A DNA stretch of 64,000 nucleotides from Trichoplax sp. H2 (lineage: Eukaryota), in the NCBI GenBank assembly GCA_003344405.1, contig NOWV01000011.1, forward strand, positions 620,001 to 684,000, written 5' to 3'. A model generated the notes under the pieces. The model was not told the DNA's origin. It ran no database searches and was given only the letters and a program-made list of their open reading frames with translations. Position numbers and translations under genes: made by a program. Positions 3,005 through 54,487 of the stretch are shown piece by piece (within the stretch, counting starts at the first letter, position 1; every line of letters begins with the position of its first letter).

Positions 3005-6000
3005 GATTTATTTTTGGTTTCCAGTTTTTTCGTCGTGCATTTCTGTCAGGTAATATTTATCGATTGACAATTGTCAGTATTTAATACTGTGGAATACAAC
3101 AAGATGTACGACGGCACAATTAGCCAAAACAATTGCAGGAATACTTTGAAATAATCAATCAATCAATTAGTTGAAGCTGAAAGCTACAAAACTAGAAAAA
3201 AACTATATCATGAATAATAAATGATTTCATATTGAATAAAGTTTGCCTCGCTATTTTATTAGTATGGAGCCTTGTTCCTATAGAAATAGTATCTAAAGTA
3301 TTTATTGAGAAAAAAGCAGTTGTATCTCCGATATTTTACGACAATAGAGCTACGTTACCATTTTATTGTAGTAGCCAAGTTCACGAGAGTTATATTTCAT
3401 ATTTTGACGAATTTGCGTTTGTCTATTAAAAAAGAAAATAAAAAAAATGATATAGATCAATTGAGAATTAAAAAATGAATAACGTAGAAATTTTACTTTC
3501 GTAAAATTACCTTATAATGTTTGTTGGATTCAATTAATGAATTATACAATTTTTACACGAAGATTTTCATTTATTTATGAACATCTCTATGTTCAAGTAC
3601 ATTATTTTATCTTGTACTCTAAAATTGGAATAAGTTACATTTATTAAATATTTGATCAATATTTCAGAGTACACCTTTTATGTCACACAACCTCAATCTA
3701 GGTTGTTATGGTGATGCCAATCTTGGAATAAAGCCAGCTTTCAATTCTTCACGAGCTCATTTGATGATATTAGTTTCTTAGACTTTTCATGCATTGATAC
3801 AATGCGAAATATTATCCCAGGGTATCATGATATTTGCAAAATGTATTTTGCCTTATTTCTAGACTCTGTGTCTGGAATATTGTAATTTCTTAGTTAAATT
3901 GAGGAGATCATAATTATATTGACTATGAAATCGATGCCAATGTAATGGTATAGATATCAATGTTTAATGATTAACAGGATATAGCAATTATGATTGAGTA
4001 CACGATATTATTCTTTAACTTCCTTATAAAATCGGCCGATAATGAATCATAATGAATCTCCTTAGCTATTGGCTTAGGAGTTATCGAAGTTATCCATTAG
4101 CGTGATTAACTGTAGAGATTAAGTCTTCATCACGGCTGCATTATGAAGAAAATGAAGTATTACAGCACTTTGTTAGCAAATTCTAAAAGAAATAGTGCGT
4201 AACAAAACAACAACATCCGATTCATTATACGTAATTACAAATTCAATTATTTCACTTTTGATATAAAAAAAAATAATATCAGTAAAATACCAAACGAGAA
4301 GCTAAGACTGCCAATTTGTTGATGTCGATGAATATTGTATTGATGAGTCGAGGTGATAATGAAATGTAGGATTTCGAAGTGTAGTCAAAGCATGTTTTAT
4401 TAAATGGATCTATTTAAGTTCTATTATCCTCGCATTTTGGTAATATTTTAGAGGATGAGTAAGATGATATTTCTGAAACTATTAATATTTTTGTATTTGG
4501 GACTAATGTTAGGGCCATTACTATTACATTATATAACACTGAATGTATAGCAGATACCATTCAACATTTGCGCATTATATTTTTTAGGTCAAAGTGGTTA
4601 ATATGTTCAATATCAATATCGGATATTAATCAAGCGCTTTGGGAAATTAATTGTTTATTCCAGTACAGGACATTGAAAAGTTACTTCCACAAATTAGAAT
4701 GTTCATGTCATTATTCTAGAATGTTATCAAATAATGATAAGAGTATCTGTACGAATAACTAAGTTAGCGCATGTTATCAGAGCTGTTATGCTCATTTCAA
4801 TGTTTTAGAAAATCTCTCTAGATGTAGAATCACAATATAAAAGCTGGGCAAAGCTTTTATTAAAGGTATTTGAAGTAAATAGATTAATAATATATAAACA
4901 TTTACTCGAATAGACAATTAAATTAAATTACTTCATTACTGAATTGACGCAAATTTCCTGTCAACATCATTATCAACTTAAGAATAAAATACAGTAATAG
5001 TTTTATTTATACTTTAGTTAATTGAAAAAATAACTTTTGACAGAAACGTGTTTGTTTTTTTAATTATTTAGTGCCATTTATACATGCTGCATCCATAAGT
5101 GACAACAAATAAATGGCATCAATAAATTTTAAGCAATTTTATTGACCATCGGTAAATAAAATTTCTGAATACTCAGTACTGCATTTAATGTTGTAACCTA
5201 GACCTGCCCCAAAATCATGACTTAATTCCACATTTTAGCAACTAATTATATACAAGAGTGGATGTACATGTACAATTTTAATAAAGATTCAATTTTTTCT
5301 TTTTACATATTACTATAGACCTGTACTACGAAATAATAATTTGCTTGGGAAAAATACTCTAAACATTAGGTTATTATGTTTAATCTCTATAAGTTTATAG
5401 TATCTAATATTGGGTTTAAATCAAATAATGCAGTCTCTTTGCCCTTTTTACTAAATTGAAATCAAGATTTTCTTCCTTAAACAGCAACTGATATAGAAAT
5501 TCTACGTGTATAGTTTAGAAATTGCTGAAGTATCACGGCGGAAAATGCTATGAGGGTTCATCAAATATCAGCAAGACTTATTTCTCTACTTTTTATCTAC
5601 ACTATTTCTTATTTGAGCCATTAAATTATTATTATTATTCAAGATAATGCTTTGTAATCTCCAAGTTTCTTGAGATTAATAAAACCAAAATATTAGCGAA
5701 TGATCTTAAGCGCTTTTGCGAATATAGTAGCGATTACTCTCAGATATTCAATTTATCAACGATAAATATTCAAATATTGTAGATTATCACGCAAGAAGAT
5801 AATATGGGTATATTTAACATGCTGATTAGATCAGGTAGAGCTACAACTTGAAAGGTACTTCGAATTTAGTAACAGTTATTAATCTGCCTACCAACTGATC
5901 TCAAAACTGATCACTTCTACGCTAATACGTTCTATTTTCTGAAAAAGATATAATTCTATTCCATTGATGGATGGTTGGATAATTTAATGCACTTGGTATT

Positions 6001-7321: not shown

Positions 7322-10300
7322 TTATTTTGGTTTAGTATGAATTCGTGTATCAGCGCCAAATGTAAATTCCTGGATAGATCGAAGCATCGCTTCTTTAGTA
7401 TTCAGATCTGGCCTAAATAAAATTGTGTAGATTTTGGGAATAAACAGTAACAGTAATATCGATAATCCAAATGTAATAACGGCTATGGATGCAAATGTTG
7501 CTTGTAATAATCCTACCGTACTATAATAACCGGGCACACTTAAAGCAACTATGACTAATGTGCTAAAAGAACAAATAAAGATATAGCGAGCTTCACTGAA
7601 GTTATCGGGCAATTTTCTAGTCTTCCATGCTAAGATAGTGCAAATTATTGCCAAGACTAATGTAAAACCAACAACAAGGCCTAATCCAAGATGCAATTTA
7701 CTTGAACATAAGATATGGACTTCATTTTCGTATCGATAATCAGGTATAGCATTTGGTGGATCAATAATAGTGAATATTAACCAAATAATTATGGGGATAG
7801 CTGTAATAGAAAGTACAAAGAGAATCGGAATAAGCGATTTACACCATCGACTTTGCAATCGAGAACTCTTGTCAACTTTCTGAATGCGTGAGCTAAGGGT
7901 AAATACATTAGCTACGTGTTTGGTTTTAGCAAGTAAACATGCTTCGCATAACGGGAAAGAAACACTACAAATTGCAAATTGGAACCAACATAGGCTTGTT
8001 GTCACTGCAAATTGGTAAGATCCACCTAGAATAAATAGTAGGGCAACGCTAAGTAGCTGTATGTGGGACATAATCTTGTTGGATGCTTTAACTATTGGTG
8101 TATTACTATACTTGAAAAAAATGATGACAATAAATAAAAGTGTTAACATGGAGAGGAGAGTAAAAATTAAAATTGTCAAATTGACTGGGTTACGCCAATC
8201 AAGTTTTGTTGGAGGAATTTCTTGACAGGCTGATCGATTATTTGTGGGCTTAAACCCAGGAGAACATTTAAAACATTGGGATGTAGTACCATTGGAAACT
8301 AGGCTTGGACCGCATTTCAAGCAGACGTAATAACAAGATTCTTGATCAAAGCTATGTTTGCGATCTCCAGGAGTACATGCTGTTTCATAAACTTCTGTAG
8401 GGATAGTTGTACTTTCACCATTACGCCAGCGAATTTTGTTAGTGTCCATTATCATTTCACTTTCAAAAGGATTCCACCTAGCCACTTCAACAAAATGAGA
8501 GCAATTGTCGTCATGATGCAAATTTTGGATTAAAATATGTCGTACGCCTTTATTTTGCTGAAATTCCACCGGCTGGTTAGCGTGATTGCTAAATTCAACC
8601 CGTTGAAGGTGATAATTAAAAATTGTATGATTGAATGTTTCAACGGAATTGCAAAATTCAATAGTACAATTTAATGTCTGATGCAGTGCATGAGCGATAG
8701 CATAAACTGCATCGATAACATAAATGATATCCTCATTCAATTCTGATTGATAATATTCACAGGAAGATTTCTTTTCATCGATGATTTCATAACTACCTAA
8801 TCTGACTTCACAGTTTTCTTCATTTGGCGTACAGTTGTATAATTTTTTCCATAACTGATCTAAATGTACATTTCTAGTATCACTAGTAACATAATTCTCA
8901 AGATGCTTTGTAATTAAAACTGATCGAAAAGTTTGCGTTGATACAGCCAGTAGGCCGCCCATCACTTCTTTCCTGATGGAGTAAATTGCTGGCGATTTAA
9001 CCCACTCACCAGCACCAATCCAAGTTCTACCAGTTAAATTTTGCCTTTCTGCTTCTTTCATAAATCTTATACCTTTTTCATAGGGTCCAAGCAAGACAAC
9101 AACTTGAAGCTTATTATTTGCTTTTAAATTTTGAATTACTCGCGCCATTGCCAAAGACATCCGATCACCAGTAATGGAGAATTCCTGGGCGATACAAATT
9201 TTGGCATCTTGTAATATAGTCCTAAGTAGATCCATTCTGTAGCTTGTTTCTGGAGGTTCAATAGTTATAAGACAAATTCGTGTCATGTCTAATGCTATTA
9301 TTATCTTAGAAATCACTACTAAATGATCATAAAACGAAGGCTGAGTTGAATATAAATTAGGAGGTTGATTGTCTGATTGTGTAACGGCCAAAGCACTTGG
9401 AGTAATTTCGATAACACCAAAATTACCTATATTAAAAATAAGACCGATAATTAAGCAATAGCGATATGAAATATAAATAGTATTCATTTATTGTACGTAG
9501 ATACCACTTTAATCTATTATATATATAATCGATTTTTAAAATAATTTCTCTCTGATTTAGCCAGCATACACCATACTAATGTTAGTTGGATTACATGGCT
9601 TACTATTATAGTATACAAATGAAAACGATATTTAATTCAGGTTATGCTTGATTAACGAGATCGATATACGTGTTTATCCAATCTATTATATCATTGATCT
9701 TTTAAACAATTTCTCTTCGATTTCACCGGTAAGCATCTTACCAGCAACAGTTAAATTATATAATTTACTATTATAGCATACAAATGGAAACGATGTTAAA
9801 TTCAGGCCATATTTAATTGACGATATTAACGTATGTCCAATCTATTATGAATGTTGTTCTAGCTCATAAAATGCTTACATATATACTGCTGAATTCTTTA
9901 CTATTTTTTTAAACATATATACTTATCCATCGGTCATTTTCGATCGATCAATAAATTTATATATTAGCCTAAGGATTGGTGGTAATTTAAAAAAATGATG
10001 TTGATATTTTGTTGTGAATTTAGGTTACATTTGTTCTTGCTCGCCCTATTATCTTATTGCATGATCCTCTGCATTCATTCTTGTCGGTTACTATTCGGTA
10101 AGAGTTTGATTGCCTATCGGATAAGCATAGGTATATAAGAGGTTGAAAGAATCCATAATGGGAGATATTCACGTGGAAACATAGTTCCTAGTCTCGCCCC
10201 AGTTATCTGAGAGTCTAGAAGTATTTACAAGCTACGATCGAACATATATTTAATGCTTGTAGTCGTTAAGCCTTCCATTTACTTAAATAGTTGTTATGCT

Positions 10301-47777: not shown

Positions 47778-47900
47778 AGTGTGCAGTACAGTACGGTACA
47801 GTACAGTACACGTCCGGTAGTCCAATTTTTTTCAGCTCAAGTGCAGTACACAGTACAGTAGGTAAAAGAGGTTTTTGAACAGTACAGTACAGTACTGTAG
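47778..47900. repeat. (CAGTA)n / TACTG degenerate pentanucleotide tract
   Basis: Repeated cagta units (e.g. cagtacagtacggtacagtacagtac and cagtacagtacagtactgtag) interrupted by unique sequence. Confidence 0.85.
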
Positions 47901-48243: not shown

Positions 48244-48352
48244 AATGGTATTTCAGTAGTCCTACTCCAAGGGGGCTTTTACAGTAAGAAAGTACCAATG
48301 GTATTTCAGTAGTCCTACTCTAAGGGGGCTTTTACAGCAAGAAAGTACCAAT
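48244..48352. repeat. 53-bp tandem duplication (2 copies)
   Basis: aatggtatttcagtagtcctactc(c/t)aagggggcttttacag(t/c)aagaaagtacc occurs twice with 2 mismatches. Confidence 0.95.
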
Positions 48353-48561
48353 TTTTCTTGAGTAGTCTCTGGTATTAGGCATACAACACACTGCACAGGG
48401 TACACGTATGAGCTGTATGAGCTACTGCGTAGACTATACGGTATTATATTGTGTACTTGTGAAGCGCTACAATTTCAGTTTTCCACAAGTAAGAAGCTGC
48501 TCTTATTTATCCTGAGCGCAAACATTGCAAAAGCAAAATCATAATGCTGTTTGATAATGTA

Positions 48562-48712: not shown

Positions 48713-48962
48713 GTGCCGATTGACTCCTTACTTCAGTAAAGTGATATTATTCTTTGATAGCAATTTACACTCCACTGCATTGCATAGCACTCTTGATGAA
48801 TTCTTGACAGAGGATTACGATTATGCTGCTAGGGACTACTAAAAAGAGAGAAAACCTTGTGTATCTTTCTAGCAGACTACCAGGCTTGTTCTTGATCTCG
48901 GCAGATCTCCACTTCTCACCTGATGTCAGGCTATGTTTACGGCATTCATTTTAGAGTGGTGT

Positions 48963-49560
48963 CGAGTAGAGTAGAGTCTACTAGAGTACAGTACTGTACA
49001 GTATCAGAGAAGGATATTGTACGTACAGTACTGTACTGTACTGTACAGAGTACTGTACAGTATGAGAGATTGCTTCCAAGTGGTTGTACAGTACTGTACA
49101 CTGTACAGTACAGTACAGTATGATGCAGCCCAGTACAGTACAGTACAATCGCGTACAGTACAGTACAGTACTGTACTGTAAAAGCGACAATGTACTGTAC
49201 AGTACAGTACAGTATCAAAGAAGGACATTGTACTGTACTGTAGAGGTCATTGAGGTACTGTACAGTACTGTAATGACACTATGAGGCAGCACGCTACAAT
49301 CGCGTAATTACAGTACAGTACAGTATGAAGCAGCCCAGTACAGTACAATCGCGTACAGTACAGTACTGTACTGTAAAAGCGACAGTGTACAGTACTGTAG
49401 TGGTCATTGAGGTACTGTACGTAGCGACTTGGATCAAGTTGTACAGTATGAGAAATTGCTTCCAAGTTGTGGTACAGACTAACCGTACTGTACAGTGTAC
49501 AGTACAGTACAACATAATGACAGTATGAGGCAGCACGCTACAATCGCGTATAAAAGTGAC
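48963..49560. repeat. Composite (CAGTA/TACTG)n satellite with recurring short cassettes
   Basis: Dense cagta/tactg units in both orientations separate recurring 10-26 bp words such as caatcgcgta (x4), ggtcattgagg (x2) and attgcttccaag (x2). Confidence 0.95.
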
Positions 49561-49907: not shown

Positions 49908-50169
49908 ACAGCACTGTTTAAAGACTACAATTACAATCTGATTCGCTTTTTTAATCGATCAATTTTAACCTCGGATGCAGTAAATATCTACCAAATTAAC
50001 ATGTTACTTTTATGTTTACACCATTATCTACAGGAGGAGGACAGTCATTATCCAGCATAGTAAAAAGTTATTTGTGCTGAACGACACTAGGCACCACAAG
50101 CAACTTTTTTTCTGTTGTTCAAGTCGTCGACGTCGGTGAAAATTATCACCACTATTATCGAGAGTCACA

Positions 50170-53100
50170 ATGCCAAGACCCGGTAATTCCAGTTATCGTA
50201 GTCGAAGTCGAAGTCATAGTCCTGCTCGTCGTAATCATTATCGGGATAGATATTACCGCGATAAGCGGAGAAGCCGTAGTCGGACACCTTCGTCTTCTCG
50301 TGGACGCAGTAATAAGCATAATAAAGAGGAAAGTAGGAGCCGTTCCAAAAGTCGAGATATCTTTGGACGTGATATCAATCGTCGTGATATAACTAATAAA
50401 GACGATGATAGAAAGACGTAAGTATCATTGCTTCGGCGGTTAACAACTTATTTTTTGAAATCACTGGATCAAGTCAATCGGAACAGTCTTCCTTTTCATC
50501 CAAGATACGTTGAGCAAGCGACGACGTAGCCCATAATTCTAGGGTATTCGGACGTCATCATTTCAATATTGCACATTACCGACTAATGATAATGAACGAT
50601 AGTATTTAAGAATGATAATCAGACGTGCCTAGTCTAGTCTAGTCATAGATTTATCTTTTATTCTTCGGTAAACGATACAATACTAGGATTATAAACTGGG
50701 CAAGTATACAGTACGGTAGATGCAGTTCAATATTTTACAATTTCTTCGGTTGGATTATCCAATCGCAAAATCGAATCAACGCTCTAACCCTAAATCCTAT
50801 AAATATACTCTAGATTAACGATAACTTAGGTTCATTCTATTTGGATACAGAATTAAACAATTCCATACAGCGTCGCATGGTAAATTACCAGATCTTGAAA
50901 GAACTAAAATAAGTTCGCAAATCATCTTATGCGATAGTGGTCAAATGTACGTTTATAATTAACTGATACGTCAATGGTATATTAACTTATCCGATTACCG
51001 ATCAATCTTAAATGCGATAACCGCTTGCATTGTACGCAAAATATGATAAAGATGCCTTGACTCTTTTGGTTAATTAATAATCGAATCTACTATAATACTA
51101 AAGGGAGGGGTATAGGAGAGAAGCTTTTCATCTTTCATTTTACTATTTTATCCATTTTTTTCAATAGTGGTAGATAATATAATTGAGCTAGGGACTTTGC
51201 AAGTTTTTCAAGAGCGTCTATACGCGTATACGAGTAGATTGTGCAGTATGTGTTTGAACATTAAGAACTTTTTAAGGAGGGTTTATCCCTTAGTGTTGAT
51301 CTCCGGGGTAGTCCGTTGTTTTTGTAAATGCCTTTCCTGTACTACTCAATTTCTGGGAAAGTCCATTTTCTCTTCTCTTCGGTTCAATATTCAGGAAAAG
51401 TTGCTAATAGTGTACCGAAAGTAGTGTAAAAACAATCTTTACCATTAGTTAAATGTGCCTTTTAATGCATTATCTTACCATATGAAGTGATTGAAGACGG
51501 GAGATCAGGTGTAACACGGTCTATCTTGCTAAATAAATTTGCGATAAAGATGCATATACTTACATAGATTCAATGCCAATGTTATTGATAGTGCAACATT
51601 TTCTATATACGATGTTGATAATGCTTAATGGATACGAAATTATAATATCGATGAAATTCATGTTAGCTTATGTGTTCGAGTTATGGACAACGTAGGACCG
51701 TAAATTAATGGATGCTTATTTGTAATACATTCTACTCTACTAACTGTCTCCTATTTGATTTCCTTCTTGCAATGTAGACTCAGCCGGGCTGAAATAGAAG
51801 GTACGTTTGTTCATATTGTAGTAGATATTTGCTTGATCATCATGCAGTAACAAGATATTGCTTAATTGATTCAATTATCATGGCATAGTTTGTCTTACCT
51901 TAAGGTTATCAAATCACGTGCAATCGACTATTTATGTATGTTAAAAAAATTATGATGCCCTACAACCTAGAAGGATCTTTACGGTTTACCAATTTTTGCA
52001 TAGAGGAAGACATAACACTTCGTAATGTTCAAAAATTTTTCTTAACATTGTAGTATGTAATACGCTTTGAAGGTATTCAAAAGTCATTCTATATAGAAGT
52101 AACCTTAACAATTACCTGTATCGTTAATTACATAGAATTGTAGTAATGCTAAGGATATTACGATACTATTAAGAATCAAATGGTTAGTCGTCAGTACGTT
52201 GTTAGTAAAATAAAAATTTATCTATTTAATTAAATCAAAGGGAATGTCGAAATGGAAGTGATGCGCCGTGTTGCTGAAGCCAAGTTATTAATGGAGAAAA
52301 AACTTCAAGAAGAATATGATAGGAAATACGAGCTTGCTGTATCTGAACTACAAATGAAAGAGGTCATACGATACCATGTTTATAGCTGTTAAATATTTTT
52401 GGTTATAATGTGTAGTCCCAATCTTAACTACAACAATTCGTATGAAGGAGAAGAGCAATTTGTTATTATAGGGTGATTGAAGATATGCGATAATTAACTC
52501 TTTATTGATTACCGTATTTACAGATCCTTGCATCTAGTATTTTTATTTTAATCAATTTCGATAAAGTTTAGATAACATCAAGAGCTGATCGGACTCAGAT
52601 TAGCCAAAGCACAACCCTCTCCATTCACCATTAGTTGGAAGAAAATTTCATTGTTACTATTGTCTGCACAAAAGTGATTGCAGTCATATTAGAACCATTT
52701 TCATTGTGAAATATCAAGACAGGTTTTACTGTACAATTTTCTATCATGTACGTTGTACTCTATACTTATATATTAAATAATAAAGATTTGGTGAGACCAA
52801 CATCGATACTATTGCTCGCTACAGTTATCCAACTTGATAATCATTCTATCATACATTTATAATCTCACTGAAGTTAGCGGAATTATGAGTTGGTTGGTAT
52901 TTAAATTTTTCAAAGTATTTACAGGTAGTAGAATGTAAGTTCATGTAATCGTAAAACTTTTGTGTTGTATTGGCGATAGCACACACGTCACACTTGAGCC
53001 TGAACTCAATTTGCCGACGTTCTGAACTTCAGTAAGGTGGTATGTTGATAAATAGTAGTGCACATACTTACATATTGTATGCTATTGTGCTACTGTAGGC

Positions 53101-53446
53101 AACAGAGCGTGACAAACTCCAGGAAGAGAAACAAGCAGTAGAAGGAGAGAAAAAAGTATTGGAAGAAGCTCAAGCAAAACTGGTAAATAGGCTTTAGTAT
53201 GTATGTTAACCTAAATTTAAATTACCTGAAATGAATAACGATAAAATGTATATTATCATTGTGGTATTTTAGGCGGAAGAACGCCTTGCTCTTTTAGAGC
53301 AGCAAAGACATCTTAATCAACAAAAAGTAAATATAAGTAAAGAAAAGAAACGATTAGAAAAATTAGAGCAGGAGTTAATCCTTAATAAAAGCAAGCAAGC
53401 CCGCCCTAAGTTATCGTTTAACATAAAGCAGAAGAGTATTTTGTAA
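50170..53446 (+). CDS. ARGLU1: Arginine- and glutamate-rich protein 1. Exons 50170-50417, 51778-51800, (52004-52021), 52241-52362, 53099-53182, 53273-53446
   Basis: RS-rich N-terminus ending DIFGR; EVMRRVAEAKLLMEKKL; an 84-nt exon ending EAQAKL; last exon AEERL...EQELILNKSKQARPKLSF, the ARGLU1 C-terminal signature. The two microexons are the least certain part. Confidence 0.88.
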
Positions 53447-54487
53447 TGACGTATTGTTGTTCTGAACTCTCTATATGGATTAAGTCAACGACCAAAAAGG
53501 TGAGCGGCCAATAGATATAGTTAAATCTTCTTGCGTACAATACTACGTATACCGCTTGGATTACTGTGGAGGCTTTACATCGGGATTTTTTCGCAATGGA
53601 TACTGCACTTATTACCCATCGACATACGGTATATCCATTTGAATACAAATACCTTGATGTATTAAATTCAAAATATCATATTTGATACTTTCAAGTAAGA
53701 CAAACATACTTACTTGAATTCCGTTTAATCGACCTGATTGTGTACCATCGACATTATATCTCGACTTCTTCATTTCTCATGTACGTATCCTGTTATATTG
53801 CGATTATTATGTATTTAGAAAAAAATTGACAATGCCTTCACGACTCATAAAAGTTCTGAACGCTTGTGATATATTAGTTAGCTACATTTGTCTTTATTCT
53901 TTGTGTCTCATAATGTACAAAAATGACTGTTTTCAATAAACCTTTACAGAAATTGAAAAGATTGATAAAGATGGTATCGTTTTGCAAATGACTAGTTTTA
54001 ATTTTGCTTAAAGCTGAATGCGAGTACACCGGTATTTACAAGATTGCAGTATGAAGATAAAATTAATTTACAGGACTTTCAACTCTATGCGATTACAGCA
54101 ATATCGTTACAGAGTGTTGACTCCAGTACAATTTAAACATAAGTAAATACGTTGAAAAGATTGATATTGATTAATCTTCAAAATTATAGTGTTTTCAAAG
54201 CGATCGTAGCATTCGCGATAATTTGAGGTGGAGTAGTTTCCTGCTTAGCGTCAATTAGAATATCAAATGCGAATGATAATAGTGATTGCAGGGTTTTAAA
54301 TTACTATTACAGCCAATTCGCTAAAATGATTTTAATTTGACAATTATATAAAATGATATCAGATAGCAATTAACGTTAAATAATGTAGGAGTGGTGATGT
54401 ACAGGATCAATTGGAGAGTAGTTGCATATTAATTAACATGTAATAGACCTGTATTTAAAAGTTTCTTTATGGAGGTAAGTTGATACT

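Follow-up and report, generated by a model that had tools for sequence, protein, structure and literature searches.

Is the self-regulating intron of vertebrate ARGLU1 a vertebrate invention, or was its ultraconservation laid over an autoregulatory intron that was already ancient? Intron 2 of vertebrate ARGLU1 contains an ultraconserved element, is found as a retained intron, holds an alternative exon leading to nonsense-mediated decay (NMD) and takes part in homeostatic autoregulation (Pirnie et al. 2017, PMC5389617), and ultraconserved elements of this kind are said there to exist only in vertebrates. The question arises from an ARGLU1 orthologue on the forward strand of a 64-kb stretch of a Trichoplax sp. 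H2 contig (the window, to which all coordinates refer unless a locus is named), where a first-pass annotation had marked 52980-53039 as a candidate poison exon. We find that the intron around this block, the third of the placozoan gene, is preferentially retained, is conserved above the level of the coding exons and stands at the position of vertebrate intron 2, and that it is probably a conserved and regulated retained intron. The earlier observation was accurate, but as a motif pattern it is statistically ordinary, and the specific poison exon is unproven.

Assignment of the gene to the ARGLU family, as an orthologue of ARGLU1, which co-regulates splicing and is rich in Arg/Ser and in Glu, comes from sequence comparison. 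The Pfam family ARGLU (PF15346) was matched by two of the four exon pieces scanned, by the last exon alone above the gathering score (40.2 bits against a cut-off of 27, E 3.9e-10) and by the exon 3 piece alone below it (17.1 bits, E 0.0054). Over the last exon there is 100% identity with a 248-aa ARGLU1 protein that is named for Trichoplax sp. H2 and carries PF15346 (P0001), and in word-indexed protein searches neither the last exon nor residues 117-248 of P0001 retrieved any protein besides P0001 itself. Judged by eye and with no composition test, the N-terminus is Arg/Ser-rich (exon 1 translation ...SYRSRSRSHSPARR...RRSRSRTPSSSRGRS...SRSRSKSRD), and the C-terminal exons, also by eye, are rich in Glu, Lys and Gln, in keeping with the Glu/Lys-rich coiled C-terminus of the family. 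Five coding exons splice into 651 nt (216 aa, one terminal stop). GT..AG joints in RNA contigs are present for all four introns and confirm every exon border; one of them, 51800>52241, was given as 51797>52238, cut +3. The annotated intron is the third of the placozoan gene and not the second because of a 23-nt micro-exon, which is itself confirmed by joints.

The first-pass annotation had equated this intron (52363-53098) with vertebrate ARGLU1 intron 2, upstream of a 28-aa (84-nt) exon, and both the alignment and the gene structures support this. Queried with P0001, a full HMMER search retrieved 24 further proteins. In alignment A1 the placozoan border ...SELQMKE/ATERDK... falls in the same column as vertebrate ...AAQKARE/EEERAK..., and the vertebrate segment EEERAK...AEAQAKL has 28 aa, equal to placozoan exon 4. 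The two borders of this exon can also be recognized in database proteins. A turkey ARGLU1 isoform (P0009) has a 38-aa insertion (residues 25-62) exactly at the intron 3 border column. Among fragments of open-reading-frame type from other animals, intron-like sequence gives way to ARGLU sequence at that border in P0007 and in P0014, which is named for Armadillidium vulgare, and at the next one, ...Q/AEERL, in eight more (P0016-P0022 and P0025). The last-exon alignment A3 retrieved at least two metagenome loci (L001 and L002) among 594 pattern matches. Locus L001 reads ...QQMKE/gtgaag into a 1231-nt intron (4558-5788), followed by an 84-nt exon (5789-5872) and a last exon at 7960, while L002 reads ...NRRE/gtatcg into a 911-nt intron (1060-1970), followed by an 84-nt exon (1971-2054) and a last exon at 2122. 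Both listed loci thus keep the ...E/gt border, the 84-nt exon and the last-exon border. As L001 and L002 share this architecture, both intron positions flanking the 84-nt exon are old.

Splicing was assessed on Logan contigs from four of the 24 runs found, placed on 50050-54000; contigs drop rare variants, so that an unlisted joint is not proof of absence. One run is on record as RNA (X19), two from two other studies are taken as RNA by guess (X8 and X10), and the fourth (X21) represents a divergent placozoan relative, organism C, in a run rated probably DNA. Introns 1, 2 and 4 are removed in all three RNA runs and intron 3 in two of them (X19 and X10). Accordingly, joint 53182>53273 occurs in three runs and joint 52362>53099 in two, the latter being unlisted among the contigs of X8, which is not taken as absence. 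Intron 3 is covered end to end in all three. A 1892-nt contig of X8 (record 24) skips introns 1, 2 and 4 and is unbroken through 52238-53181, and single contigs of X10 (record 5) and X19 (record 14) are unbroken over 52334-53126, which is intron 3 with 29 and 28 nt of flank. From contig depth, a poor measure in that it is one mean per de Bruijn contig, the unspliced share for intron 3 is about 53% in X10 and 67% in X19 (intron contigs 92.2 and 134, exon 3-exon 4 joint contigs 82.8 and 65.4), against about 7-14% for introns 1-2 (contigs 22.5 in X10, 2.5-23 in X19 and 28.7 in X8; matching joints 185.3, 151.4 and 183.8). This contrast within one gene is alike in three studies. The first-pass annotation had proposed a search for intron retention in RNA, and intron 3 proved to be strongly retained in all three RNA runs, unlike introns 1, 2 and 4. 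By the measure of contig depth, about half or more of the steady-state RNA keeps it while the other three introns are removed.

Conservation was measured against organism C, whose holes in coverage (exons 4-5 and most of introns 1-2) prove nothing, so that positive observations alone are used. Its coding sequence differs from the window by 36 other letters and 3 gaps in 254 for exon 1 (85% alike) and by 26 other letters in 156 for exon 3 with 30 nt of intron (52237-52392; 83%). All six of its contigs that could be placed run on into sequence unlike the window, including 399 nt downstream of exon 1; the flanks of exons 1 and 2 are unlike the window, with loose ends at 50170, 50423 and 51816. 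Within intron 3, a 565-nt contig (record 19) follows exon 3 and then the intron's first half in collinear order. Record 20 is alike at 116 of 127 positions over 52886-53012 (11 other letters, 6 inserted), a loose end at about 13 of 14 over 53013-53026 (1 extra letter), and record 21 at 44 of 46 over 53028-53073 (2 other letters), where the donor-like sites at 53032, 53037 and 53040 are included. Spacing between the intron pieces is kept (69 diverged letters for 70, and 81 for 86), and past 53073 a loose end reaches the same ...TAG/GCAAC acceptor with an equal letter count and 20 of 30 letters alike. Blocks 52886-53012 (91%) and 53028-53073 (96%) lie above the coding exons (83-85%). One test set by the earlier proposal was conservation of the candidate block beyond intron background, and this is what the region 52886-53073 displays, above coding-exon level in organism C. 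None of the best stretches against this relative (44/46, 22/23 and 116/127) is an ultraconserved element, which is defined by an identity of 95% or more that distant species share across 200 nt or more. A coding role for the conserved block was considered and rejected, since the relative has frame-breaking insertions at 52933 (4 letters), 52954 (1 letter) and 52958 (1 letter).

Conservation extends to the donor of intron 3, GTCATA, which with 5/9 consensus matches is the lowest of the four introns. A search with exon 3 and its read-through gave two database open reading frames (ORFs) of close relatives, P0005 (83% identical) and P0030 (86% identical), which read from exon 3 into the intron as ..KEVIPYHAYNC and ..KEVIPYNVHVNY, against ..KEVIRYHVYSC in the window. 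Val-Ile past the border implies GTN ATH, and the donor is therefore without the consensus G at +5 in three lineages, with A at +4 and T at +5 kept. Judged from these translations, the weak donor is conserved in two further relatives. Position +5 is likewise not G in four of four loci, the window, L001 (GTGAAG), L002 (GTATCG) and human (GTaacg), too few to test. The human exon-2 donor, gag/GTaacg, has a MaxEnt score of 9.65 and is rated strong (PMC5389617 Table 1).

The sequence features from which the first-pass annotation had built its candidate exon are all present. Exon 3 ends ...AAAGAG/gtcata at 52362/52363 and opens an intron of 736 nt, the exon after it (53099-53182) has 84 nt and ends ...EEAQAKL, the internal acceptor reads ...ttggcgatag/CACACA at 52979/52980, and the competing donors GTAAGG and GTATGT lie at 53032 and 53040; a third donor-like GT at 53037 (AAG/GTGGTA) was absent from its list. 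Spliced in phase 0, the block reads CAC ACA CGT CAC ACT TGA and stops after five codons, with the TGA (52995-52997) two exon junctions upstream of the last exon. Its GC content is 48.3%, against 32.5% for the whole intron, a value reached by only 1.65% of all 60-nt segments in the window, and the GC maximum of intron 3 is at 52971. The candidate acceptor sits between two donor-like clusters (52915-52945 and 53032-53040), and AAT/GTAAGT at 52935, in the first of these, is the best donor-like site of the intron. With the candidate's own sites as thresholds (acceptor at least 9/17 pyrimidines, donor at least 5/9 consensus matches, a crude score), the 20 acceptors and 23 donors of intron 3 combine into 95 AG..GT pairs that are 30-200 nt long, and 90 of these lead to a stop or frameshift; the corresponding figures in 300 mononucleotide shuffles are 75±22 and 72±22, and there are 114 pairs in intron 1 and 70 in intron 2. 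The motif pattern alone thus says nothing, and the block is marked out by composition and conservation.

What could these features do together? The human intron provides the closest model. Its spliced and retained products are roughly equal, and an exon with a premature termination codon, served by several competing 5' sites, lies inside the conserved element (PMC5389617). This cassette, of 58 nt in erythroblasts, is a decoy exon that promotes retention, and it was the positive control in the decoy-exon study of Parra et al. (2018, PMC6097662). It has a weak annotated donor and several competing downstream donors; mutation of its 3' splice site relieves retention, and transfer of the exon to a different intron promotes retention there, as the 'decoy exon' model describes (PMC5389617, PMC6097662). 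The arrangement of donor-like clusters in the placozoan fits this model, and a decoy is therefore taken as the likeliest mechanism. We lean, if only slightly, towards a regulated ('detained') intron 3 with 52980-53039 as a decoy exon in the conserved core. Retention would most likely rest on the conserved weak donor (GAG/GTCATA) and on conserved intronic sequence with its core at 52886-53073, of which the GC-rich block and its three overlapping donor-like sites would be part. The splice sites of the block would most likely draw in the splicing machinery without a productive outcome, so that the intron stays unspliced. If the block were included now and then, it would bring in a TGA five codons on, upstream of two exon junctions, and so produce an NMD substrate, and by analogy with human ARGLU1 the protein may feed back on the splicing choice. 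As a candidate exon, the placozoan block shares with described decoy exons a small non-coding cassette, competing splice sites and a highly retained intron, but those exons are defined by minigene tests and U2AF binding (PMC6097662), whereas the block is known from sequence and contigs.

Besides the coarseness of contig depth, several points weigh against this interpretation. The RNA status of X8 and X10 is guessed, though spliced joints are present, and a contig path is no proof of single molecules with intron 3 kept and its neighbours spliced. The contigs of the four runs contain no joint at 52980, 53031, 53036 or 53039, which does not demonstrate absence. The AG..GT..stop pattern of intron 3 is not above chance (95 pairs against 75±22 shuffled), the candidate acceptor is mediocre (9/17 pyrimidines), with three other acceptors in the intron scoring better, and the block is not the only exon-like pair within conserved sequence, 52874-52934 and 52635-52673 being others. 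Conservation rests on the contigs of one relative, in which the differing positions at the acceptor, the donors and the TGA are not visible. Finally, similarity beyond placozoans is at chance level, both for blastn of intron 3 against the L001 and L002 introns (best E 0.31) and for tblastn of the turkey isoform P0009 against the window intron (best E 1.6).

The first-pass annotation had read the block as a true cassette poison exon, 52980-53031 or 52980-53039, which NMD would keep at a low steady-state level. This is doubtful, though it accounts for the in-frame TGA with two downstream junctions and for the place of the block in the best-conserved intronic sequence, with its donors in the 44-of-46 piece, and the length of 52-60 nt is near that of the human 58-nt cassette with its multiple 5' sites (PMC6097662). 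Use as an exon found no support in the contigs, which drop rare variants: joints 52362>52980, 53031>53099, 53036>53099 and 53039>53099 are unlisted in X19, X8, X10 and X21, and in X8, X10 and X19 no intron contig is interrupted at 52980 or at 53031-53040. The chance level of the motif pattern also counts against a poison exon, as does a downstream intron of only 59-67 nt.

Passive inefficiency, that is slow splicing from a poor donor with no feedback and with conserved blocks that serve something unrelated, is improbable. A donor with the lowest match of the four introns could suffice, and retention would need no further element. However, a donor that is weak by chance is not expected to stay weak in three lineages, a collinear intron with blocks conserved above coding sequence is not expected either, and the same intron is regulated in vertebrates (PMC5389617).

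We consider it very improbable that the conserved sequence exerts its effect at the level of DNA or of another transcript, as an enhancer or promoter with intron RNA from internal starts. Conserved non-coding blocks are often enhancers, and contigs are blind to RNA starts and strand. Against this, words spanning the exon 3-intron border are present in all three RNA runs, with contig starts 29 nt within exon 3, the X8 contig leads without a break from spliced exon 2 across the intron, and the conserved 5' intron end with its weak donor points to selection at the RNA level.

Least credible of all is an intron-hosted box C/D small nucleolar RNA (snoRNA) as the reason for conservation and GC content, since the match of a plant C/D model, Rfam snoR101 (RF01155), to 52985-53068 (+ strand, over the whole length of the model; E 0.034 for 1.1 kb of sequence, 0.0081 for 261 nt) reaches 23.9 bits against a gathering score of 40 in a model without base pairs, needs a 21-nt insertion, rests largely on the stretch UCUGAACUUCA-GUAAG and aligns the model's terminal CUGA (D box) to CACA of the window. 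The site lies 30-110 nt upstream of the 3' splice site, a distance typical of intronic snoRNAs, and the likeness to snoR101 consists of this intronic location and the sub-threshold sequence match. A scan did not find box C/D architecture (C box RUGAUGA, 3' D box CUGA, terminal stem), and in the absence of C box, terminal D box and terminal stem the block differs from a box C/D snoRNA: the minus strand has no C box within one mismatch and the plus strand only ATTATGA at 52882, with 2 complementary terminal bases. Folding is ordinary (z -0.64 and -0.01; sliding windows all above -1), and the best-conserved piece extends past both CTGA motifs.

Other parts of the conserved sequence contain pairings of their own. 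A further decoy exon, 52874-52934, could be bounded by the AG at 52872-52873 and the GTA cluster. At 52635 intron 3 has its best polypyrimidine acceptor (14/17), which is followed 39 nt on by AAA/GTGATT, and the 39 nt between them (52635-52673) are open in phase 0 (13 codons without a stop, by eye), so that they would form an in-frame cassette; no joint for this pair is listed among the RNA contigs. Downstream of the candidate block, the GTATGT donor at 53040-53045 has its reverse complement in ACATAC at 53062-53067, and ATACTTAC at 53064-53071 equals the 5' end of U1 small nuclear RNA. Both motifs (53062-53071) lie within the 44-of-46 conserved piece. The stretch 53040-53071 could be a donor-masking helix or a branch-site region; its fold z-score is not significant.

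How old is the regulation of this intron? The placozoan and vertebrate introns belong to the same gene family, follow a GAG-encoded Glu and precede a 28-aa (84-nt) exon; in both, retained and spliced forms are of similar abundance, the intron is conserved above coding sequence, and a short exon-like block combines a stop with several competing donor-like sites (PMC5389617). They differ in that no sequence similarity is detectable (the turkey inserted peptide being the sequence compared), that placozoan conservation is below the ultraconserved definition and was seen among placozoans only, that the block is only 59-67 nt from the 3' splice site, and that the intron is the third of its gene. Nuclear detention, NMD and autoregulatory feedback are processes that, together with a decoy or poison-exon role of the block, we infer for the placozoan. 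The RNA data came from placozoan runs only. With no similarity to the L001 and L002 introns or to the turkey insertion, common descent of the regulatory element is not shown; a blastn comparison of the L001 and L002 introns with each other also gave chance-level matches only. The suggestion in the first-pass annotation that the circuit may date to the base of animals is not shown: the position of the intron is old, but it finds no backing in nucleotide similarity to the homologous introns of two other animals. The data speak for an ancient position and for introns that behave alike in placozoans and vertebrates, at opposite ends of the animal tree, with continuity between them not yet shown.

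We regard it as possible, with confidence somewhat short of even, that a self-limiting ARGLU1 circuit of one unspliced intron with a weak donor and an internal decoy or poison exon predates the placozoan-bilaterian split, in which case the same intron would have served for more than half a billion years while its regulatory sequence was completely replaced. Independent origin at a conserved intron is a real alternative if serine/arginine-rich (SR) protein genes are a guide, in which unproductive splicing is ancient in SRSF5 and has been repeatedly re-invented (Lareau and Brenner 2015, PMC4379411). As in those genes, a splicing regulator with an RS-rich region would be held in check by a non-productive isoform, and the event may persist between animals that are very far apart even as its sequence turns over (PMC4379411). 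Unlike them, ARGLU1 is not an SR protein with an RNA recognition motif, and the outcome is intron retention and not a cassette or alternative 3' exon. If the placozoan circuit is of common origin with the vertebrate one, it would join SRSF5 as a second example of unproductive splicing that animals have conserved, and would be the first such example built on a switch of retained intron and decoy exon.

Vertebrate ARGLU1 intron 2 is a textbook case of ultraconservation, and to our knowledge its function (retention, decoy exon, feedback) is known only from human cells. Preferential retention and selective conservation of the same intron in a placozoan would allow the regulatory logic to be dated apart from the ultraconserved sequence, and would offer a compact natural version of the switch, of 736 nt, for dissection. 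Full-text literature, with supplements outside its coverage, yielded no mention of ARGLU1 together with Trichoplax, and for the fly homologue CG31712 with 'intron' it yielded only the human study (PMC5389617). The coordinates of the gene and of the elements of intron 3 are collected in Table 1.

Table 1. Exons of the placozoan ARGLU1 gene and features of its intron 3 (coordinates of the window)
Feature	Coordinates	Strand	Description and evidence
Exon 1	50170..50417	+	ATG at 50170, Arg/Ser-rich N-terminus, donor AC/gtaagt; ORF; joint 50417>51778 in X19, X8, X10
Exon 2, 23-nt micro-exon	51778..51800	+	Joints 50417>51778 and 51800>52241 in 3/3 RNA runs
Exon 3, 122 nt	52241..52362	+	Ends ...SELQMKE, phase 0; joints; aligns with vertebrate ...AAQKARE
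Intron 3, 736 nt	52363..53098	+	Retained; positional homologue of vertebrate ARGLU1 intron 2
Weak donor GTCATA and 9-codon read-through (VIRYHVYSC)	52363..52392	+	TAA at 52390-52392; X21 alignment continues from exon 3 to 52392
Conserved intronic patch, short	52463..52485	+	X21 record 19: 22/23 alike
Conserved intronic patch with best polypyrimidine acceptor (52635)	52572..52738	+	X21 record 19: 27 other and 10 gap letters in 167
Best-conserved region, encloses block and two donor-like clusters	52886..53073	+	X21 records 20 and 21 and loose end
Donor-like GTA cluster	52915..52951	+	52915, 52925, 52935, 52945, 10 nt apart; scores 6, 6, 8, 6 of 9
Candidate poison/decoy exon (52, 57 or 60 nt)	52980..53039	+	GC-rich block; in-frame TGA 52995-52997
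Triple overlapping donor-like sites	53032..53045	+	TCA/GTAAGG 53032, AAG/GTGGTA 53037, GTG/GTATGT 53040; scores 5, 6, 6 of 9
Exon 4, 84 nt	53099..53182	+	ATERDK...EEAQAKL; joints 52362>53099 (X19, X10) and 53182>53273 (X19, X8, X10)
Exon 5, last coding exon with stop codon	53273..53446	+	Pfam ARGLU; 100% identical to P0001

The database protein P0001 differs from the product described here. It holds a 31-aa segment (IKQFH...DSGQ) from an ORF inside intron 1, at about 50850-50947 of the window, while all three RNA runs join 50417 straight to 51778 and give the 216-aa product without this segment. The extra annotated exon probably stems from faulty prediction or else belongs to a rare form. X19, X8 and X10 also contain a second contig, about 4.4 kb long, that matches the last exon over 53291-53326 only (36 nt, 6 differences) and is unlike the window on both sides of the match; it probably represents a coiled-coil gene that is unrelated but codes for a similar run of Glu, Gln and Lys. 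Degenerate long arrays of a 5-nt unit (GTACA/CAGTA) occupy 47784-47819 and 48952-49508, upstream of the ARGLU1 promoter region, and a 53-nt unit is repeated 2.1-2.3 times at 48244-48367.

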